The notes under the pieces were generated by a model. That model searched no databases. It had not been told where the DNA came from and saw only the letters and a list, made by a program, of their open reading frames with translations. A DNA stretch of 64,000 nucleotides from assembly GCA_964419675.1 (NCBI GenBank), contig CAYQPN010000003.1, positions 75,985 through 139,984 of the forward strand, in the 5' to 3' direction. Positions 6,838 through 28,804 of this stretch are shown piece by piece. This DNA comes from an uncultured Candidatus Saccharibacteria bacterium. Its GTDB lineage: Bacteria > Patescibacteriota > Saccharimonadia > Saccharimonadales > SZUA-47. Within the stretch, counting starts at the first letter, position 1; each line of letters begins with the position of its first letter. A program made the translations under genes and the position numbers.

Positions 6838-7413
6838 CAAAACAACACCTAACAATCGCTGGGTATTGATATGTGGTGGGCCAAATAGTGGCAAAACAAC
6901 GATTGTTAACAGACTTGAAGACCTTGGATACAAAGTTAAGCATGAAGAAGCTAGGCCCATACTAGACAGATACATTGAAGAAAAAGTCCCATTAGAGAAG
7001 ATTGTGGAAGATAAAATTGTTGGATCTTCTTTTCAGGACGAAATTGCACTAGCAGAATACGCAGCTGAACAAAAACAACCAAAGGAAGAGCTAGTATTTT
7101 TCGACAGAGTAGCAATAGAGTATTTTGCATTGCTAAACTACGTAATCTAAAAATAGATAAAAATATTGCGAAAAAGCTGAGGGAGTGTAGCTATGCATAT
7201 GCATTTTTCCTGGACGCAGTACCTGTCAACTTTTCTTCAGACAGGATAGAGACCATATATGGAGACCCCCTGAAGGCCTCTATTGAACAAGAGAAAGCTA
7301 TGCTGGAAATAATTGAGCAATTCGATATCCCTATTAGTCGAGTAGCCTACGATTCTGTCGATGCGCGTATTAAATACATTCTAAGCAAATTAACTAAAAT
7401 TGGCATAATTTAA
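6809..7413 (+). pseudogene. AAA_28/NadR-type P-loop ATPase, interrupted by a frameshift near 7130
   Basis: ATG at 6809 gives ...WVLICGGPNSGKTT (Walker A)...VFFDRVAIEYFAL, then a stop at 7148-7150. The reading continues in the -1 frame from ~7132 as AKLRNLKIDKNIAKKLRECSYAYAFFLDAVP...DARIKYILSKLTKIGII to a stop at 7411-7413. The 6695-6808 part of the track ORF is only an out-of-frame overlap of the NUDIX gene. Confidence 0.6.
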
Positions 7414-7543: not shown

Positions 7544-8416
7544 ATGCACTTATGCTTGCCTATACTAACAATTAATGGTTTTATACTATCAATGAAATTA
7601 CCAGAAGTACTGTGTGAGGCTGCCATTCGTTTTGGCGAATTTAGGGGTGCTCCTTCGATACAATTACGTAATATTGAATCCGTTGCAAAGCGATATGGGA
7701 ATCACCGGCCTAAACCTAGAGTTGTAGCTGCCGGGCAAATGCTAGGTAAGTTATTGTATGCCCCACGTATTGAAATGACACCAAAAGCAGAAGATATGCT
7801 GGGGCGACACGTAGATAATGATGGTGTGATTATTCTAACCTCAAATCACGTTAGGTGGATGGACCCACTAATTCTTACCACCTGCCTCAAAAAAACTCCG
7901 ACACTACAGAGAGTAAACAAAGATATGATAATTCCCACTAAGCCGTCGTTGTTCAAGATACCGGGGCTTAGGTGGGCAGTTGAAGGAATGGGCTCGTTTG
8001 TGACTTTTAGAGAAAAGGACGCTATGGAAGAAGATGGCGACATCAGTTCTGAGGATAGGGCTTATTTAGCAAAGTCCGGAGCATATACGGTAGCAACTAT
8101 TGTTGACAATTTGGTAGCGGGAGGCAATGCAGCGGCATTTGTTGAAGGAACTCGAAACAAAGGTGACCCACTAATTGTGCAGGAAATTCTTGGCGGAGTT
8201 GCACTGATGCACAAAAGGGCCGTCAAGTTGGGCGCAAATGTAGCTGAACTTCCTGTCGGAATTTACTATGACCAGAGTAACCGAGGTGCAACTGTGTATT
8301 TTGGAGAAGTATATACACCTCCTCAAGATATGAAACTTCGACAACACACCGATTTCATCCAAGAGCAAGTTCAGGGATGTGTCACGACAGCCTTTGAGCT
8401 GGCTAAGGTTGCTTAG
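7544..8416 (+). CDS. lysophospholipid (1-acyl-sn-glycerol-3-phosphate) acyltransferase, PlsC family
   Basis: HX4D motif NHVRWMDP and the FVEGTRNKG (EGTR) motif. Alternative start at Met17 (7592). Confidence 0.75.
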   Translation: MHLCLPILTINGFILSMKLPEVLCEAAIRFGEFRGAPSIQLRNIESVAKRYGNHRPKPRVVAAGQMLGKLLYAPRIEMTPKAEDMLGRHVDNDGVIILTSNHVRWMDPLILTTCLKKTPTLQRVNKDMIIPTKPSLFKIPGLRWAVEGMGSFVTFREKDAMEEDGDISSEDRAYLAKSGAYTVATIVDNLVAGGNAAAFVEGTRNKGDPLIVQEILGGVALMHKRAVKLGANVAELPVGIYYDQSNRGATVYFGEVYTPPQDMKLRQHTDFIQEQVQGCVTTAFELAKVA

Positions 8417-10902: not shown

Positions 10903-12054
10903 ATGGAACAAAATAACAAGTCTAGTAACAGTGCGTTTAAACCTCCTGTTGATGTAACAATAAAACGCACGCGCAAGTTTGATTTTTCTGGCATGAAAGA
11001 AAAATTTTTGAAGAAGCCAACTAAAAAGCGCCTTTTAATTGTAGCCGGGGCAAGCCTTGGGTTGCTTGTTTTGGGTGTTGGTGCACTTTATTTGTTTGGG
11101 CCTAAACCTGCTGAGATTGGACCTGAGCCAACCGTAGAATCAACTTACGTTGCACCTGTTCCGACCACTATGGCATCACCGCTCACTGGAGTAATAGTAG
11201 AAAAGGCGCTTGCTGAGCGGCCCGTAACGGGAATAATGGTTGAGAACAGCGTGGATGCTAGGCCTCAATCTGGGTTAACAGACGCAGGTATCGTTTTTGA
11301 AGCCATCGCCGAGGGTGGGATTACCAGGTTTTTGACTCTATTCCAAGAAGCTCAGCCAACCAACGTCGGTCCTATACGGAGTGCTAGACCTTACTACGTT
11401 GAATGGGCTGCCGGCTTTGGTTCAAGATATTTGCATAGCGGTGGTAGCGGGGAAGCTTTGGCTCTAATCCGTAGTCTAGGAGTCAAGGACATAGATCACG
11501 GCGCCTATGGCGAGCGAATTGCCAGCCGTGTCTCCAGCCGCTACGCGCCACATAATGTCTACACCAGCATGGAAAGAATTGACGCACTAGGCACAGAACT
11601 TGGATTTACCAGCAGCGAGTTTACTCCTTTTGCACGCAAGGAAGATGTAAAAGCTGAACTACCGACGGCTTCAACAATAAATTTTGATATTTCAGGGCAA
11701 AATTACAATACCAAATACTCCTACGATGCAACATCAAACAGCTACTTAAGAAACATGGCTGGGTTGCCTCACACCGACGAAAATAACGGCAAGCAAATTC
11801 AACCAAAAGTAGTAATTGCATTAATCACTACCTACAGCATACATTCCGACAAAATCCACAGTGTTTATAAAACAACCGGTTCGGGTAGTGCAATTGTCTT
11901 CCAAGACGGTATTGCCACAACTGGAACTTGGAAAAAAGATTCACAAACTAGCTCACTGGGCTTTTTCAACGTAGACGGTACACCGTTACTACTCAACGCC
12001 GGTCAAACGTGGATAACGGCAATACCGGACGGAAGAACAAGTTATACACCTTAG
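10903..12054 (+). CDS. DUF3048 domain protein (YerB-like)
   Basis: 383 aa. TM anchor, then PLTG...RPVTGIMVENSVDARPQSGL...VFEAIAEGGITRFLTLF, which is characteristic of DUF3048. Confidence 0.65.
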   Translation: MEQNNKSSNSAFKPPVDVTIKRTRKFDFSGMKEKFLKKPTKKRLLIVAGASLGLLVLGVGALYLFGPKPAEIGPEPTVESTYVAPVPTTMASPLTGVIVEKALAERPVTGIMVENSVDARPQSGLTDAGIVFEAIAEGGITRFLTLFQEAQPTNVGPIRSARPYYVEWAAGFGSRYLHSGGSGEALALIRSLGVKDIDHGAYGERIASRVSSRYAPHNVYTSMERIDALGTELGFTSSEFTPFARKEDVKAELPTASTINFDISGQNYNTKYSYDATSNSYLRNMAGLPHTDENNGKQIQPKVVIALITTYSIHSDKIHSVYKTTGSGSAIVFQDGIATTGTWKKDSQTSSLGFFNVDGTPLLLNAGQTWITAIPDGRTSYTP

Positions 12055-14334: not shown

Positions 14335-14409
14335 GGTCCCATCGTCTAACGGTTAGGACACTAGATTCTCAATCTAGCAATACGAGTTCGATTCTCGTTG
14401 GGATCACCA
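14335..14409 (+). tRNA. tRNA-Glu (anticodon CTC), CCA encoded
   Basis: Manual cloverleaf. Acceptor GGTCCCA/TGGGATC, D-arm GTCT-AACGGTTA-GGAC, anticodon arm CTAGA-TTCTCAA-TCTAG, T-arm ACGAG-TTCGATT-CTCGT, then discriminator A plus CCA. Confidence 0.93.
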
Positions 14410-25960: not shown

Positions 25961-26596
25961 ATGGGTTTGTTTGAACGAAAAAGGTCTACTTTTGATTCTG
26001 TGGCGCCGTTATATACTATTGGCGATTCGCAGACTTTGCTTGTAATTGGGCTCGGTAACATCGGTAAGGATTATGTCGGCAACCGTCATAACGTAGGCTT
26101 CATGGTCCTTAATAAATATCAGACTAGCCACGACTTCTCAGGTTGGGTTACCAAAAAAGATTTAGCTTGTGAGATTTCTATCGGGCAAGTTGGATCAACG
26201 AGGGTTATCTTGGCAAAACCTACTACACTTATGAATAACAGCGGGGAAGCTGCTCAGAAATTGCAAAGTTTTTACCACGCATACAGCCCAGACACAGTGG
26301 TAGTTCATGATGAACTTGACATAGATTTTGGAACTATCCGTACCAGAGTTGGCGGAGGCAGTGCAGGGCATAACGGTATAAAATCTTTGCTTACCCACAT
26401 TGATGAAGATTTTGCTAGAATTCGCATTGGAATTGGACCAAAACAGCCACCTCAAATCAACAGTGCTGACTTTGTATTGCAAGATTTTGACGTAAAAGAA
26501 CAGAAAATATTAACAAAAATTATAAACGAATCCTGCACGATTCTAGACGAAAGAACCACCGGCCAATTAGACGAACGAACAATTACTATTACCTAG
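25961..26596 (+). CDS. pth: peptidyl-tRNA hydrolase
   Basis: 211 aa. LVIGLGNIGKDYVGNRHNVGF and VVVHDELDIDFG motifs, with a ~25-aa N-terminal extension. Confidence 0.9.
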   Translation: MGLFERKRSTFDSVAPLYTIGDSQTLLVIGLGNIGKDYVGNRHNVGFMVLNKYQTSHDFSGWVTKKDLACEISIGQVGSTRVILAKPTTLMNNSGEAAQKLQSFYHAYSPDTVVVHDELDIDFGTIRTRVGGGSAGHNGIKSLLTHIDEDFARIRIGIGPKQPPQINSADFVLQDFDVKEQKILTKIINESCTILDERTTGQLDERTITIT

Positions 26597-27155
26597 CACT
26601 TGGGGGCATCGCCGCATCATAGGCTCTGGCAATTCTTTCTTGTACTGATACTGGCCTTTCTGGTTGAGGGTTAGAAGAAACTGGCATCCAAAGTTGAATT
26701 TCCAACTCATCTATTCCTGAGCGTCTTGCTTGCTCAACTGCATTACCCCTATCGCCAATTAATACTGTAGGTAGACCATTCCTTCTCTGTGGGGATACAA
26801 ACTGAAGCCAAGTCGGGTCGGTAACAACTTCAATACCAGCAATTCTAAGAATTGGATAACGATGTTCATCAACGGTCCATCCAGCTCTGTTGTTTACTTC
26901 GGGATCAAGCCCCCGATCTCGCAGAGCATCAAGCATGCTTGTGGTAACTTGTCTACATCTTCTGGAAAACGGTATCTCCGATACTTCTATACCACTTGAT
27001 CTTGATTCAGCCCTATACGCCTCTTCAGCCGATTCAGTTATTAGTCTCGTCATCTCCTCATCTAACCCGCCAGAGACACCAACAAGTTGTTGGTTCTTAG
27101 GATTAAGTGGTGACTCCGCCCACGGTGGTGAAAATAGATTATTCGCCATATTCAT
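26589..27155 (-). CDS. hypothetical protein with transglutaminase-like (papain-fold Cys-His-Asp) core
   Basis: 188 aa. RRCRQVTTSMLDALRDRGLDPEV...DEHRYPILRIAGIEVVTDPTW fits the C...R..G(I/L)...H...DPT spacing of transglutaminase-like cysteine peptidases. By-eye call only. Confidence 0.4.
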   Translation of the reverse strand: MNMANNLFSPPWAESPLNPKNQQLVGVSGGLDEEMTRLITESAEEAYRAESRSSGIEVSEIPFSRRCRQVTTSMLDALRDRGLDPEVNNRAGWTVDEHRYPILRIAGIEVVTDPTWLQFVSPQRRNGLPTVLIGDRGNAVEQARRSGIDELEIQLWMPVSSNPQPERPVSVQERIARAYDAAMPPSAR

Positions 27156-27204
27156 ATTGTATCACACTAATGCTTAACTGTCAATGAGACTCCTAGCAAT
27201 GTTA

Positions 27205-27800
27205 GGCCTATAGAGGGTGAGGACTGCCAGTGGCAGTACGCAAGAGAATCTAACTGATTTTGAACTTGTTCAATAGTCAAGTTAATTCTGTGGTCACGCT
27301 AGCGTGACTGGGCACCGCTTGGGATGTCCTCCAAATAAATAAGAGTCTACAGAGGTGAGATATGCCTGTGGCATATCGGAACCCACAGACTGATTACAAG
27401 CTTGCTTGAAGTCATGTCGAGGGCGGGTCGAGACTCGGCTGACTTTAGTCACCGAGATCGTGACGAGGGCACCGCCGGCTGTCTACCCCCAATAAAAAGA
27501 GCCTCTAGAGGGGGTGGGCACCGCTAGAGGCTCATTACACCCTTCAACCCACCTTGAAGGCTCCTTAATGCTATCTCGCAATAAGCACTAAGCCCACTCA
27601 ATGGTATTTCCGCTATTAAACTCACAGCTCAAATAAAACGAGGGAGTAATACGGGGTTAAAGGGGATTTACTACTCATCAGCAAATCAAATGATTAACTG
27701 GTGACCAGTAAAACTGTCTTAGAGCTTCCACCGCAAAACGGTGAAAAGCTTGAAGGCGTGGAGGGTAACAACGACTTGCAGGCCAGACTCTAAAACATAA
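27205..27800. ncRNA. candidate large structured non-coding RNA region (class unknown, strand undetermined)
   Basis: The 776-bp gap has no ORF of 60 aa or more. Many perfect 5-10 bp helices are present, including nested domains and a pseudoknot-compatible arrangement (coordinates in findings). GGGCACCGC occurs three times. Confidence 0.4.
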
Positions 27801-27952
27801 ATTCTTTTCAGTCAACCGAGGTTGGTGTTAGAATTTAGGGGTAAAAGGTACGTAATGTCCTATAAATAGGACTTACAAGTTGCTATTCTAGCAAAAAAGT
27901 GTCGTTATGTCAATACTAAAATACTTTTTCGTTGTATAAGCAAAACTATATT

Positions 27953-28804
27953 ATGAATACGCTTACCCTTAGACCACCTCTGAGAAAAAAACTTAACCGA
28001 TTAAAAGTTAAAGTTAGCACTTTAACTTACCTAGGTATTGATATTAATGAACTAATAGATAGACCAATAGTTGCAATTGTGGGAACTCGAAAGCCGACTC
28101 CGTATGGAAAACAAATAACAGAGAAGATTGCCGCTGAGCTGGCAAGGGCAGGGACAATAATAGTTAGCGGGCTAGCCTTCGGAATAGATACAATTGCCCA
28201 CGAGGCTTGCTTGAAGGCTGGCGGGACCACGATTGGAGTTCTACCAAGCGGTATCAACAACATATATCCTGCGTCACACCGAAACATCGCAAAACGAATC
28301 GTAAAAGAGGGTGGGGCGCTTTTAAGTGAGTATGAGGCTGACCGGCAACCCCTAAAAATAGAGTTTCTTGAGAGGAATAGAATAATTGCAGCATTGAGCG
28401 ACGCAGTAATAGTCACAGAGGCCGCAGAACGCTCAGGAAGCTTAAACACCGCTGGACATGCAGAGTCTATGAATATCCCCGTTTTTGCCGTTCCTGGACC
28501 CGTAACTAGCTCGCTGAGCGGAGGCACAAACCATTTGCTAAAAACGGGATGTAGAATGATCACCGAAGCCAGAGATGTGTTGGAGTTTCTAAATGTTAAA
28601 GGTATCAAAAACAAAGTCCCGATAAAAGGTAACACCCCTGAGGAAACGCTAGTAATGATTAAAATATCTGAAGGGATGCATGATTCAGCCTTACTTCAAG
28701 TACAATCTGGTCTGGAAACGAGAAAGTTTCAGATGGCGATAACTATGCTGGAACTTGACGGTAAGATAAAAGCCGACGCAGTGGGAAATTGGCATATTAT
28801 TTAG
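27953..28804 (+). CDS. dprA: DNA-processing protein DprA
   Basis: ORF from TTG 27932; ATG at 27953. Rossmann-like DprA core IVGTRKPTPYG...IVSGLAFGIDTIAHEACL...AVIVTEA..SGSL.TA. Confidence 0.88.
   Translation: MNTLTLRPPLRKKLNRLKVKVSTLTYLGIDINELIDRPIVAIVGTRKPTPYGKQITEKIAAELARAGTIIVSGLAFGIDTIAHEACLKAGGTTIGVLPSGINNIYPASHRNIAKRIVKEGGALLSEYEADRQPLKIEFLERNRIIAALSDAVIVTEAAERSGSLNTAGHAESMNIPVFAVPGPVTSSLSGGTNHLLKTGCRMITEARDVLEFLNVKGIKNKVPIKGNTPEETLVMIKISEGMHDSALLQVQSGLETRKFQMAITMLELDGKIKADAVGNWHII

Follow-up and report, generated by a model that had tools for sequence, protein, structure and literature searches.

A large structured RNA probably encoded divergently from dprA in a clade of Saccharibacteria

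What kind of element occupies the unusually long gene-free gap in front of the competence gene dprA in an uncultured Candidatus Saccharibacteria bacterium? Saccharibacteria are ultra-small epibionts with reduced genomes, and to our knowledge almost nothing is known of their non-coding RNAs. The gap lies in a stretch of 64,000 nucleotides (nt) of contig CAYQPN010000003.1 (assembly GCA_964419675.1, positions 75,985 to 139,984), hereafter called the window. It spans positions 27156-27952, between an open reading frame (ORF) of 188 amino acids (aa) on the minus strand (26589-27155) and dprA (ATG at 27953), whose product matches Pfam DNA_processg_A with E = 2e-65. A first-pass annotation, made from the letters of the window, had proposed a single GC-enriched, densely base-paired and unclassified RNA of about 600 nt at 27205-27800. 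The gap was indeed found to be free of ORFs of at least 60 aa, the longest within 27156-27952 comprising 52 aa, and the GC content is 0.53 at 27300-27599 compared to 0.40 over the whole window. Dense base pairing was also evident. The helices listed in the annotation can be read at their positions, the plus-strand fold of 27190-27830 has a free energy of -219 kcal/mol (z = -6.9) and the minus-strand fold of 27190-27880 one of -234 kcal/mol (z = -7.0). None of the dinucleotide shuffles used as controls folds as well in either case.

The description of the region as conserved, structured and non-coding therefore holds, whereas its description as one RNA of about 600 nt does not. The region consists of a core RNA gene of approximately 390 nt and two optional tandem modules (290 nt) located past its terminator. 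The interval originally proposed lacks about 80 nt of the 5' end of the RNA and includes the 290 nt of modules (27205-27497). It had also been placed "upstream of dprA", while the core is assigned to the opposite strand and has its own promoter and terminator. Judged from its sequence and that of its homologues, the core is very probably an independent minus-strand gene for a structured non-coding RNA, divergent from dprA, in a clade of Saccharibacteria (TM7).

Conservation, strand and ends of the core RNA gene

The best named relatives of the DprA protein are Candidatus Saccharibacteria. Setting aside two near-identical contigs, the nearest DprA is 61% identical, and contigs with DprA identities of 49-61% have the gene order der ... 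pth ... dprA topA in common, with a gene-free gap of 700-900 nt in front of dprA. Comparison of the window gap with the syntenic gaps of these relatives by nhmmer yielded E-values of 1e-46 to 1e-97, indicating that the nucleotide sequence of the gap is far better conserved than the flanking DprA protein. The 21-mer CCCTTCAACCCACCTTGAAGG, which is common to the first relatives, was scanned through the metagenome collection and gave 60 further loci; the resulting homologue set contains 52 distinct core sequences. Flanks of 1.2 kb or more were available for 46 loci; in 43 of these, dprA follows directly to the right of the core on the plus strand, at DprA identities of 36-62%. The left neighbour of the element differs among loci (pth, Sua5, a KTI12-like gene, an acyltransferase or the 188-aa ORF). 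The core alignment features 84 invariant columns and 150 columns with at least 90% conservation, with a median identity to the window of 67%; the invariant blocks GGTTAAAGG and GGAGGGTAAC occur in nearly all loci. In the window the core is present as a single copy.

The core RNA gene occupies approximately 27491-27880 on the minus strand and is read away from dprA, as delimited by the edge of conservation, the promoter and the terminator. Its putative sigma-70 promoter with extended -10 region (27885-27913) is composed of a -35 box TTGACA (27913-27908), a 17-nt spacer, TGc (27893-27891) and a -10 box TAGAAT (27890-27885), and scores 11/12 plus the TG extension in a consensus scan. The promoter was found at the same place in all 52 distinct loci, with TTGACA or TTGACT as -35 box, TGn in 52/52 and TAnnnT in 51/52 loci. 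The -35 box served as the anchor for extraction, and the independent evidence for the promoter thus consists of the -10 box and the TG only. The -10 box reads TAAAAT in 25, TAGAAT in 11, TATAAT in 6 and TAATAT in 4 of the loci. This drift of the inner positions indicates promoter-like evolution and is unlike that of an RNA helix. Transcription would start at 27876-27880, which coincides with the conservation edge and with the 5' stem-loop, and the RNA would end within the U-tract at 27498-27491. Conservation ends at both signals.

Three independent lines of evidence, namely the promoter, the terminator and the wobble bias, place the core on the minus strand. In 39 of 52 loci the 10-bp terminator helix has a U-rich tail on the minus strand, compared to a T-rich tract on the plus strand in only 2 of 52. 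For the wobble count, all homologues were folded without allowing G.U pairs, and 1x1 mismatches within the resulting helices were tallied. In the core helices this yielded 116 A.C versus 19 G.T mismatches in plus-strand notation, distributed over many distinct sites; an A.C in this notation corresponds to a G.U on the minus strand. For the hairpin M10 (see below), the minus-strand version is the more stable one in 39 of 43 sequences, with 11 Watson-Crick and 3 G.U pairs in L065, for example, and the terminator stem shows five G.U against one A.C. Promoter and terminator bracket the conserved structured region, which is what is expected for an independent small RNA or other non-coding RNA gene. 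A minus-strand core with its own promoter and terminator is thus a divergent independent gene and not a leader of dprA.

A location immediately in front of dprA, as in 43 of 46 loci, would also suit a plus-strand leader, such as a riboswitch-like element or tandem aptamers controlling dprA in cis. Tandem modules recall tandem aptamers, and the conserved unpaired segments are purine-rich when read on the plus strand. This alternative is already contradicted by the strand evidence, since the wobble pairs of the core are overwhelmingly of the minus-strand type and the core lies on the opposite strand and is transcribed away from dprA. The plus-strand motif TGnTAGAAT (27826-27834), considered as a dprA promoter, proved to belong to the covarying helix M2, of which it forms one strand, and was therefore discarded; a conserved plus-strand promoter was not found upstream. 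In addition, two thirds of the loci have no modules, and no riboswitch family matched. We regard a cis-acting leader as very unlikely.

Fold of the core RNA and its accessory modules

When folded alone, the core reaches a minimum free energy (MFE) of -130.4 kcal/mol (z = -6.1). The fold comprises a hairpin at the 5' end, then two enclosed domains of several helices each (M2-M5, followed by M7-M10), and finally the terminator hairpin with an invariant 17-nt apical sequence. The first-pass annotation had suggested covariation in homologous dprA-upstream regions as a check. When 49 sequences of the 3' domain were aligned, 96.5% of the cells were paired, and 17 pairs, corresponding to 155 cells, showed changes on both sides. 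None of 500 shuffles reached this level, and pairing with slid partners gave 5-9 pairs and 11-28 cells. The compensatory substitutions hence exceed the controls, as expected for a structured RNA. For hairpins that MAFFT could not align, the 5' and 3' halves were exchanged among homologues. Native halves of M1 pair with -6.3 kcal/mol compared to -1.9 kcal/mol for the chimeras (p = 1e-18), and those of M10 with -14.8 compared to -5.8 kcal/mol (p = 1e-20). M2 gave p = 3e-10, and M8+9 and M12 likewise gave p <= 1e-8.

All following elements of the core are read on the minus strand. The 5'-terminal stem-loop M1 (27852-27876) has the sequence GUAAG-UCCUA-UUUA-UAGGA-C-AUUAC; its stem varies in homologues, yet remains paired. 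It is followed by the unpaired segment GUACCUUUUACCCCU (27837-27851), which is nearly invariant across loci, and by M2 (27799-27836), a helix AAAUUCU/AGAAUUU that encloses a variable hairpin. M2 covaries, reading AAATTCT/AGAATTT in some loci and TCTAAC/GTTAGA in others, and the plus-strand TAGAAT at 27829-27834 is one of its strands. The long-range helix M3 (27716-27796) pairs GUUUUAGAG (27796-27788) with CUCUAAGAC (27724-27716) and encloses M4 and M5. Over its 11 pairs we counted 290 Watson-Crick, 14 minus-strand G.U and 1 A.C combinations, and five pairs occur in at least two Watson-Crick types. M4 (stem 27757-27759/27771-27773) presents the invariant loop UGUUACCCUCC (27770-27760); its stem covaries between A-U and C-G (20:16), with U.G closures also present. 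M5, inside M3, pairs CACCG (27729-27733) with CGGTG (27739-27743). The variable arm M6 (27667-27712) is missing or different in many homologues and appears as an indel in the alignment.

The 3' domain (27540-27664) is closed by M7, in which CCCUUUAACCC (27664-27654) pairs with GGGUUGAAGGG (27550-27540), and contains M8 (27610-27618/27647-27654), with double changes in six of eight pairs, M9 (27628-27630/27640-27642) and M10 (27564-27592), with the loop UUGCGAGA. M7 is invariant in 49/49 sequences, including a central U.G pair, which corresponds to C.A in plus-strand notation. A local hairpin that competes with M7, M11 (27541-27547/27554-27560), would present GGUGGG as its loop. The local CCTTCAA/TTGAAGG pairing and the long-range helix with GGGTTAAAGGG are both invariant, and the comparative data cannot choose between them; the long-range helix has the minus-strand U.G. 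M7 and M11 might act as a switch. The intrinsic terminator M12, also designated H1 (27491-27533), consists of the 10-bp stem GAGCCUCUAG/CUAGAGGCUC (27533-27524/27508-27499) and the U-tract at 27498-27491. Its stem shows double changes in ten pairs, with 99.8% of cells paired, and its loop together with the adjoining positions, GCGGUGCCCACCCCCUC, is invariant.

About half of the homologues, including L062, L064, L058, L072 and L111, feature an optional hairpin between the terminator helix and the ACACCC block (equivalent to window positions 27533 and 27537). Examples are GGGGACGTC-ACTCAATG-GACATCCC and GGGCTCGAA...TCGAGCCC. Perfect complementarity exists between the 3' arm of this hairpin, GGACATCCCAA, and the module tail TTGGGATGTCC, which could allow them to pair around the terminator.

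Directly left of the core, homologous loci carry zero to three tandem modules of 135-155 nt, which have a constant orientation and abut H1. Modules are present in 21 of about 62 loci (about a third), in 29-31 copies. The evidence on their strand is divided (see below), and they are given here in plus-strand notation. Module 1 of the window (27205-27342) starts with GGCCTATAG-AGGGTGAG, continues with the hairpins P_A (27223-27237), P_B (27245-27289) and P_C (27293-27308), and ends with TGGGCACCGC (27309-27318) and TTGGGATGTCC. Module 2 (27343-27497) is of a long subtype with P_A at 27359-27377, P_B at approximately 27393-27415 (CUUG loop) and an extended P_C at 27422-27476; it contains GGGCACCGC (27467-27475) and has the tail CGGCTGTCTACCCCC. 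It is recognised by the hidden Markov model of the module with E = 1e-43 and has homologues in L071, L096 and L105.

The general layout of a module is GAGCCTnnAG-AGGGTGAG-[P_A]-CGCAAG-[P_B]-[P_C]-TGGGCACCGC, and the 10-bp helix at 27499-27533 reads GAGCCTCTAG-AGGGGGT-GGGCACCG-CTAGAGGCTC. From the match of the two layouts it follows that each module is a copy of the terminator hairpin whose loop has taken up three hairpins. A module is thus an elaborated terminator hairpin, whose loop halves GCGGUGCCCA and CACCCUC are split by three covarying hairpins. This homology explains why GGGCACCGC occurs three times in the 64-kb window, always within the gap (27310, 27467 and 27516) and twice preceded by CGTGAC, as had been noticed in the first-pass annotation. 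In 17 modules of similar length 526 cells are Watson-Crick pairs, and most pairs occur in two to five pair types; the three module hairpins and the GGUG/CACC closing helix are maintained by many compensatory changes. Of the structures originally listed, the hairpins at 27223-27237, 27245-27289, 27293-27308, 27359-27377 and 27434-27456 and the helix at 27499-27533 show such changes in homologues. The GAGGAC/GTCCTC helix, thought to close a domain, is not conserved in homologues. The proposed ACCCCC/GGGGGT pseudoknot can form only in loci where the helix is preceded by one particular module subtype; most homologues have an unrelated sequence upstream.

On the other side of the core, the divergent arrangement leaves only about 40-70 nt for the promoters of both the core RNA and dprA. 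This tight arrangement may permit co-regulation with dprA, or may merely be an inherited gene order. No Shine-Dalgarno sequence is recognisable for dprA in the window (27914-27955) or its homologues, and in relatives a TTGnnn-17-TATGAA arrangement overlaps the dprA start codon; the dprA promoter must overlap or abut that of the RNA gene. The 188-aa ORF at the left end of the gap belongs to no Pfam family (weak match to Tox-PLDMTX, E = 0.095) and is missing from the equivalent position in relatives. It is preceded by a near-consensus promoter (TTGACA-17-TACAAT, 27156-27184) whose -10 box abuts the first ATG; the mRNA would then be leaderless and begin at the second ATG (27149).

The terminator loop in viral contigs and a possible role

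The 15-mer GGGGGTGGGCACCGC of the terminator loop was scanned in viral contigs and found at 108 loci, which is roughly the number expected by chance. In at least 50 of these loci, however, it forms the loop of a perfect hairpin with the layout seen in the window (stem, GA, 15-mer, stem'). The viral stems comprise 6-25 bp, are all different and are unrelated to the host stems. The hairpins occur among loci L125-L232, for example in L127 (3879-3923), L134 (1923-1959) and L139 (3155-3201). Their wobble pairs in plus-strand notation (64 A.C versus 29 G.T) indicate that the RNA strand reads GCGGUGCCCACCCCCUC, in agreement with the strand of the core RNA. The majority of the hairpins are intergenic, typically 3-20 nt past the stop codon of a co-oriented small gene, and the orientation of these neighbouring genes agrees with the strand assigned to the core. 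Most of the viral hairpins have no U-tract. Since the invariant loop recurs on unrelated stems mostly without this tract, the hairpin appears to do more than terminate transcription. The terminator hairpin of the core is thus one case of a more widespread hairpin motif that has apparently not been described before; the viral hairpins fall under no Rfam family.

A single protein family upstream of the viral hairpins was considered and rejected, as several unrelated small proteins were found there, none with a PHROG match. In one viral group the hairpin directly follows the gene of a conserved phage protein of about 83 aa (MKSTxxxLSxxERxALxxFYxTxxYKALxKLI..ERLELAKD...GQ..LK.L; no PHROG match), encoded in L182 (2767-3024), L188 (967-1218), L151 (5335-5580), L132 (2611-2856), L186 (4933-5175) and L165 (2673-2924). 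In L174 (11257-11409), a tRNA gene (11257-11343) is located on the strand of the loop hairpin, at a distance of 14 nt from it.

The occurrence of the loop in many viral contigs could also mean that the element was left behind or is carried by a mobile element or phage, as an attachment-site (att) region or a repeat similar to miniature inverted-repeat transposable elements. The varying copy number of the modules would fit, as would L216 (1-8444), the only viral-labelled contig with a full core (7937-8371). There, the core adjoins genes for an FtsK/SpoIIIE-PD-(D/E)XK fusion and for C5 and N6 DNA methylases, together with a second, stand-alone loop hairpin (6856-6886). The usual dprA neighbour may have been replaced in L216 by a mobile element that integrated next to the RNA gene. 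Apart from this contig, viral contigs have the hairpin and not the core, and the 21-mer of the core has zero matches in them. The viral hairpin as an att-site copy of the 3' end of the RNA was rejected because viral and host stems are unrelated. The single copy of the core in the window, its own conserved promoter and its synteny with dprA-topA across deep divergence also argue against a mobile origin, which we consider even less probable than a dprA leader.

The shared loop suggests a mode of action for the core RNA, which we put forward tentatively and with low confidence. The RNA would act in trans as a stable scaffold or decoy, presenting the invariant loop and C-rich single strands (UACCCUCC, UACCCCU) to a protein or RNA partner. 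As phage transcripts carry the same loop just past the ends of genes, the partner could be a factor engaged by both host and phage RNAs. Modules would raise the number of loop-motif copies from one to as many as four. The loop has invariant complements in GGUGGG (27553-27548) and GUGGGC (27597-27592), and these segments might hide or uncover it in concert with the invariant helices M7 and M11, which exclude each other. The one to four loop copies, the invariant complements and the exclusive helices are consistent with a decoy model and are no demonstration of it. A more specific version, which has a slim chance of being correct, treats GCGGUGCCCACCCCCUC as a new, widespread phage hairpin motif at the 3' ends of genes and the Saccharibacteria RNA as its host partner. 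In that version the RNA would be a decoy with one to four loop copies, GGUGGG and GUGGGC would form kissing interactions with phage loops, and the locus beside dprA would be a host-phage interface serving defence or exploiting a hijacked host factor. Blended with its proposed mechanism, the independent RNA gene is the best overall explanation and is one we consider fairly likely, at lower confidence than the gene itself.

Several points weigh against this explanation. The use of an exact core 21-mer as bait inflates the apparent conservation at this site and narrows the phylogenetic breadth that was sampled. In two other Saccharibacteria loci, L010 and L025, the gap in front of dprA is missing and nothing matches the element, indicating that it is specific to a clade; a DprA scan of genome contigs gave distant relatives only and no homologue of the core RNA. 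The transcription start, the 3' end and any read-through into the modules are deduced from sequence alone. Because M7, M11, the loop and its complements are invariant throughout, covariation is silent for or against the mechanism. Finally, the modules are positioned past the terminator when read on the minus strand, their wobble pairs lean towards the plus strand (36 G.T versus 10 A.C, or 20 G.T without one constant site) and their apical loops, CUYG and GAAN, resemble plus-strand loops.

The last of these points would be explained by two convergent RNA genes, one for the minus-strand core and one for one or more plus-strand RNAs made of the modules, which would overlap in antisense at the core terminator and interact via complementary 3' ends. 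The G.T excess includes an A-U/G.U/G-C series at one P_C position and a G.U in the GGUG/CACC helix, and the mean MFE of the modules is lower on the plus strand. The wobble counts are low, however, with 16 of the 36 G.T at the one constant site, and the fold z-scores of the modules do not differ between the strands. A conserved plus-strand promoter was not found in front of the first module, which in some loci is only 10-20 nt away from the neighbouring gene, and a plus-strand T-rich tract past H1 is present in only 2 of 52 loci. The phage hairpins moreover use the shared loop motif in the minus orientation. We regard convergent genes as improbable, though they are clearly more plausible than a leader or a mobile remnant, and favour the minus-strand core with optional modules past its terminator.

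Relation to known RNA classes

Rfam scans covered the window and 30 related or viral loci. With Rfam 15 at the gathering score, the sole match in the whole window is a tRNA at 14335. At E <= 10 a 1-kb region around the element gave whalefall-1 (19 bits) and two chance matches to lncRNA/snoRNA families only, and cmscan at E <= 1 to 10 on 14 homologous loci listed nothing over the element. Literature searches on structured RNAs of Saccharibacteria or the Candidate Phyla Radiation (CPR) and on the loop sequence yielded no description of it. The element is thus a new family of large structured bacterial RNA outside Rfam 15 and the literature searched, which agrees with the earlier impression that no family could be assigned.

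The whalefall-1 (RF01762) match covers the CUUG-loop hairpin of module 2 (27373-27424, plus strand). With 19.1 bits (E = 0.043) it stays far below the gathering score of 37 and it was seen neither in five other module-bearing loci nor in L062; the lead was dropped. The consensus tail of this family, GGGUGAGGAC, resembles the module start AGAGGGUGAGGAC, a resemblance we treat as chance or at most a very distant relation.

A length of approximately 390 nt and very strong conservation would suit RNase P RNA or transfer-messenger RNA (tmRNA), and a highly diverged RNase P RNA, tmRNA, 6S or signal recognition particle RNA might be missed by the Rfam models. CPR RNase P RNAs are in fact diverged and score below Rfam thresholds, yet are recovered by RF00010 at lowered thresholds (PMC8172020). 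None of these families was listed by cmscan for the region at E <= 10 or for the 14 homologous loci. RNase P RNA, suggested by size and short resemblances such as GGGGUAAAAGGUACG, was rejected because the motif order is wrong, RF00010 and RF00011 do not match at E <= 10 and the P4 strands (AGGAAAGUCC ... ACAGAA-N-CGGCUUA) were not found on either strand of the region. ARAGORN detected no tmRNA in the window, and a tRNA-like end is absent from both strands of the region sequence. Some Saccharibacteria (L010, L025) also have no such element at the dprA locus. A diverged housekeeping RNA is accordingly about as improbable as the dprA leader.

TIGR-Tas arrays, which have been found in phages and CPR, consist of alternating 8-12-nt repeats and 9-nt spacers in 5-15 units beside a Nop-domain Tas gene, and their spacers A and B do not covary (PMC12045711). 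A TIGR array was rejected for the present locus, where the units comprise 135-155 nt in zero to three copies, the stems are strictly complementary and no Nop-domain gene is nearby. A decayed protein-coding gene, named in the first-pass annotation as one outcome that would overturn the RNA, has nothing in its favour except the unusual length of the gap. Distances between conserved anchors are spread evenly modulo 3 (e.g. 17/17/17), the short ORFs have no Pfam match, and conservation tracks helices with compensatory changes; this reading is refuted for practical purposes.

In its general features the core RNA resembles OLE, the raiA motif, ROOL, GOLLD and HEARO, as it comprises several hundred nt with covarying helices, invariant unpaired blocks and its own transcription signals, and is confined to a single lineage. 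Like the core, raiA RNAs often adjoin competence genes. The core differs from these orphan RNAs in the absence of any Rfam match at E <= 10, in its occurrence in Saccharibacteria, and in the combination of two enclosed domains, a terminator with invariant loop and optional tandem modules. The likeness to CsrB/RsmZ sponges (trans-encoded, own promoter and terminator, a short motif in one to four structured units) concerns a possible mode of action; the core RNA is no member of that family. It has no GGA/ANGGA motifs, its repeat is a 17-nt split loop motif, and it has a conserved non-repetitive body of about 350 nt. The hairpin at 27499-27533 is typical of intrinsic terminators in its GC-rich 10-bp stem, which is followed by a minus-strand U-tract and ends the conserved unit, and is distinguishable from ordinary ones by a loop of 15-17 nt that is invariant in all homologues.

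Taken together, an RNA of approximately 390 nt with 84 invariant positions that is kept beside dprA while DprA identity falls to 36-62% likely plays a central role in this clade, and would extend the short list of large orphan RNA classes in bacteria. The variation in module number among relatives and the loop shared with phage hairpins make the RNA directly testable, and the family can be converted to a covariance model for the annotation of CPR genomes. The presence of the loop on phage hairpins points to a putative binding partner common to both.

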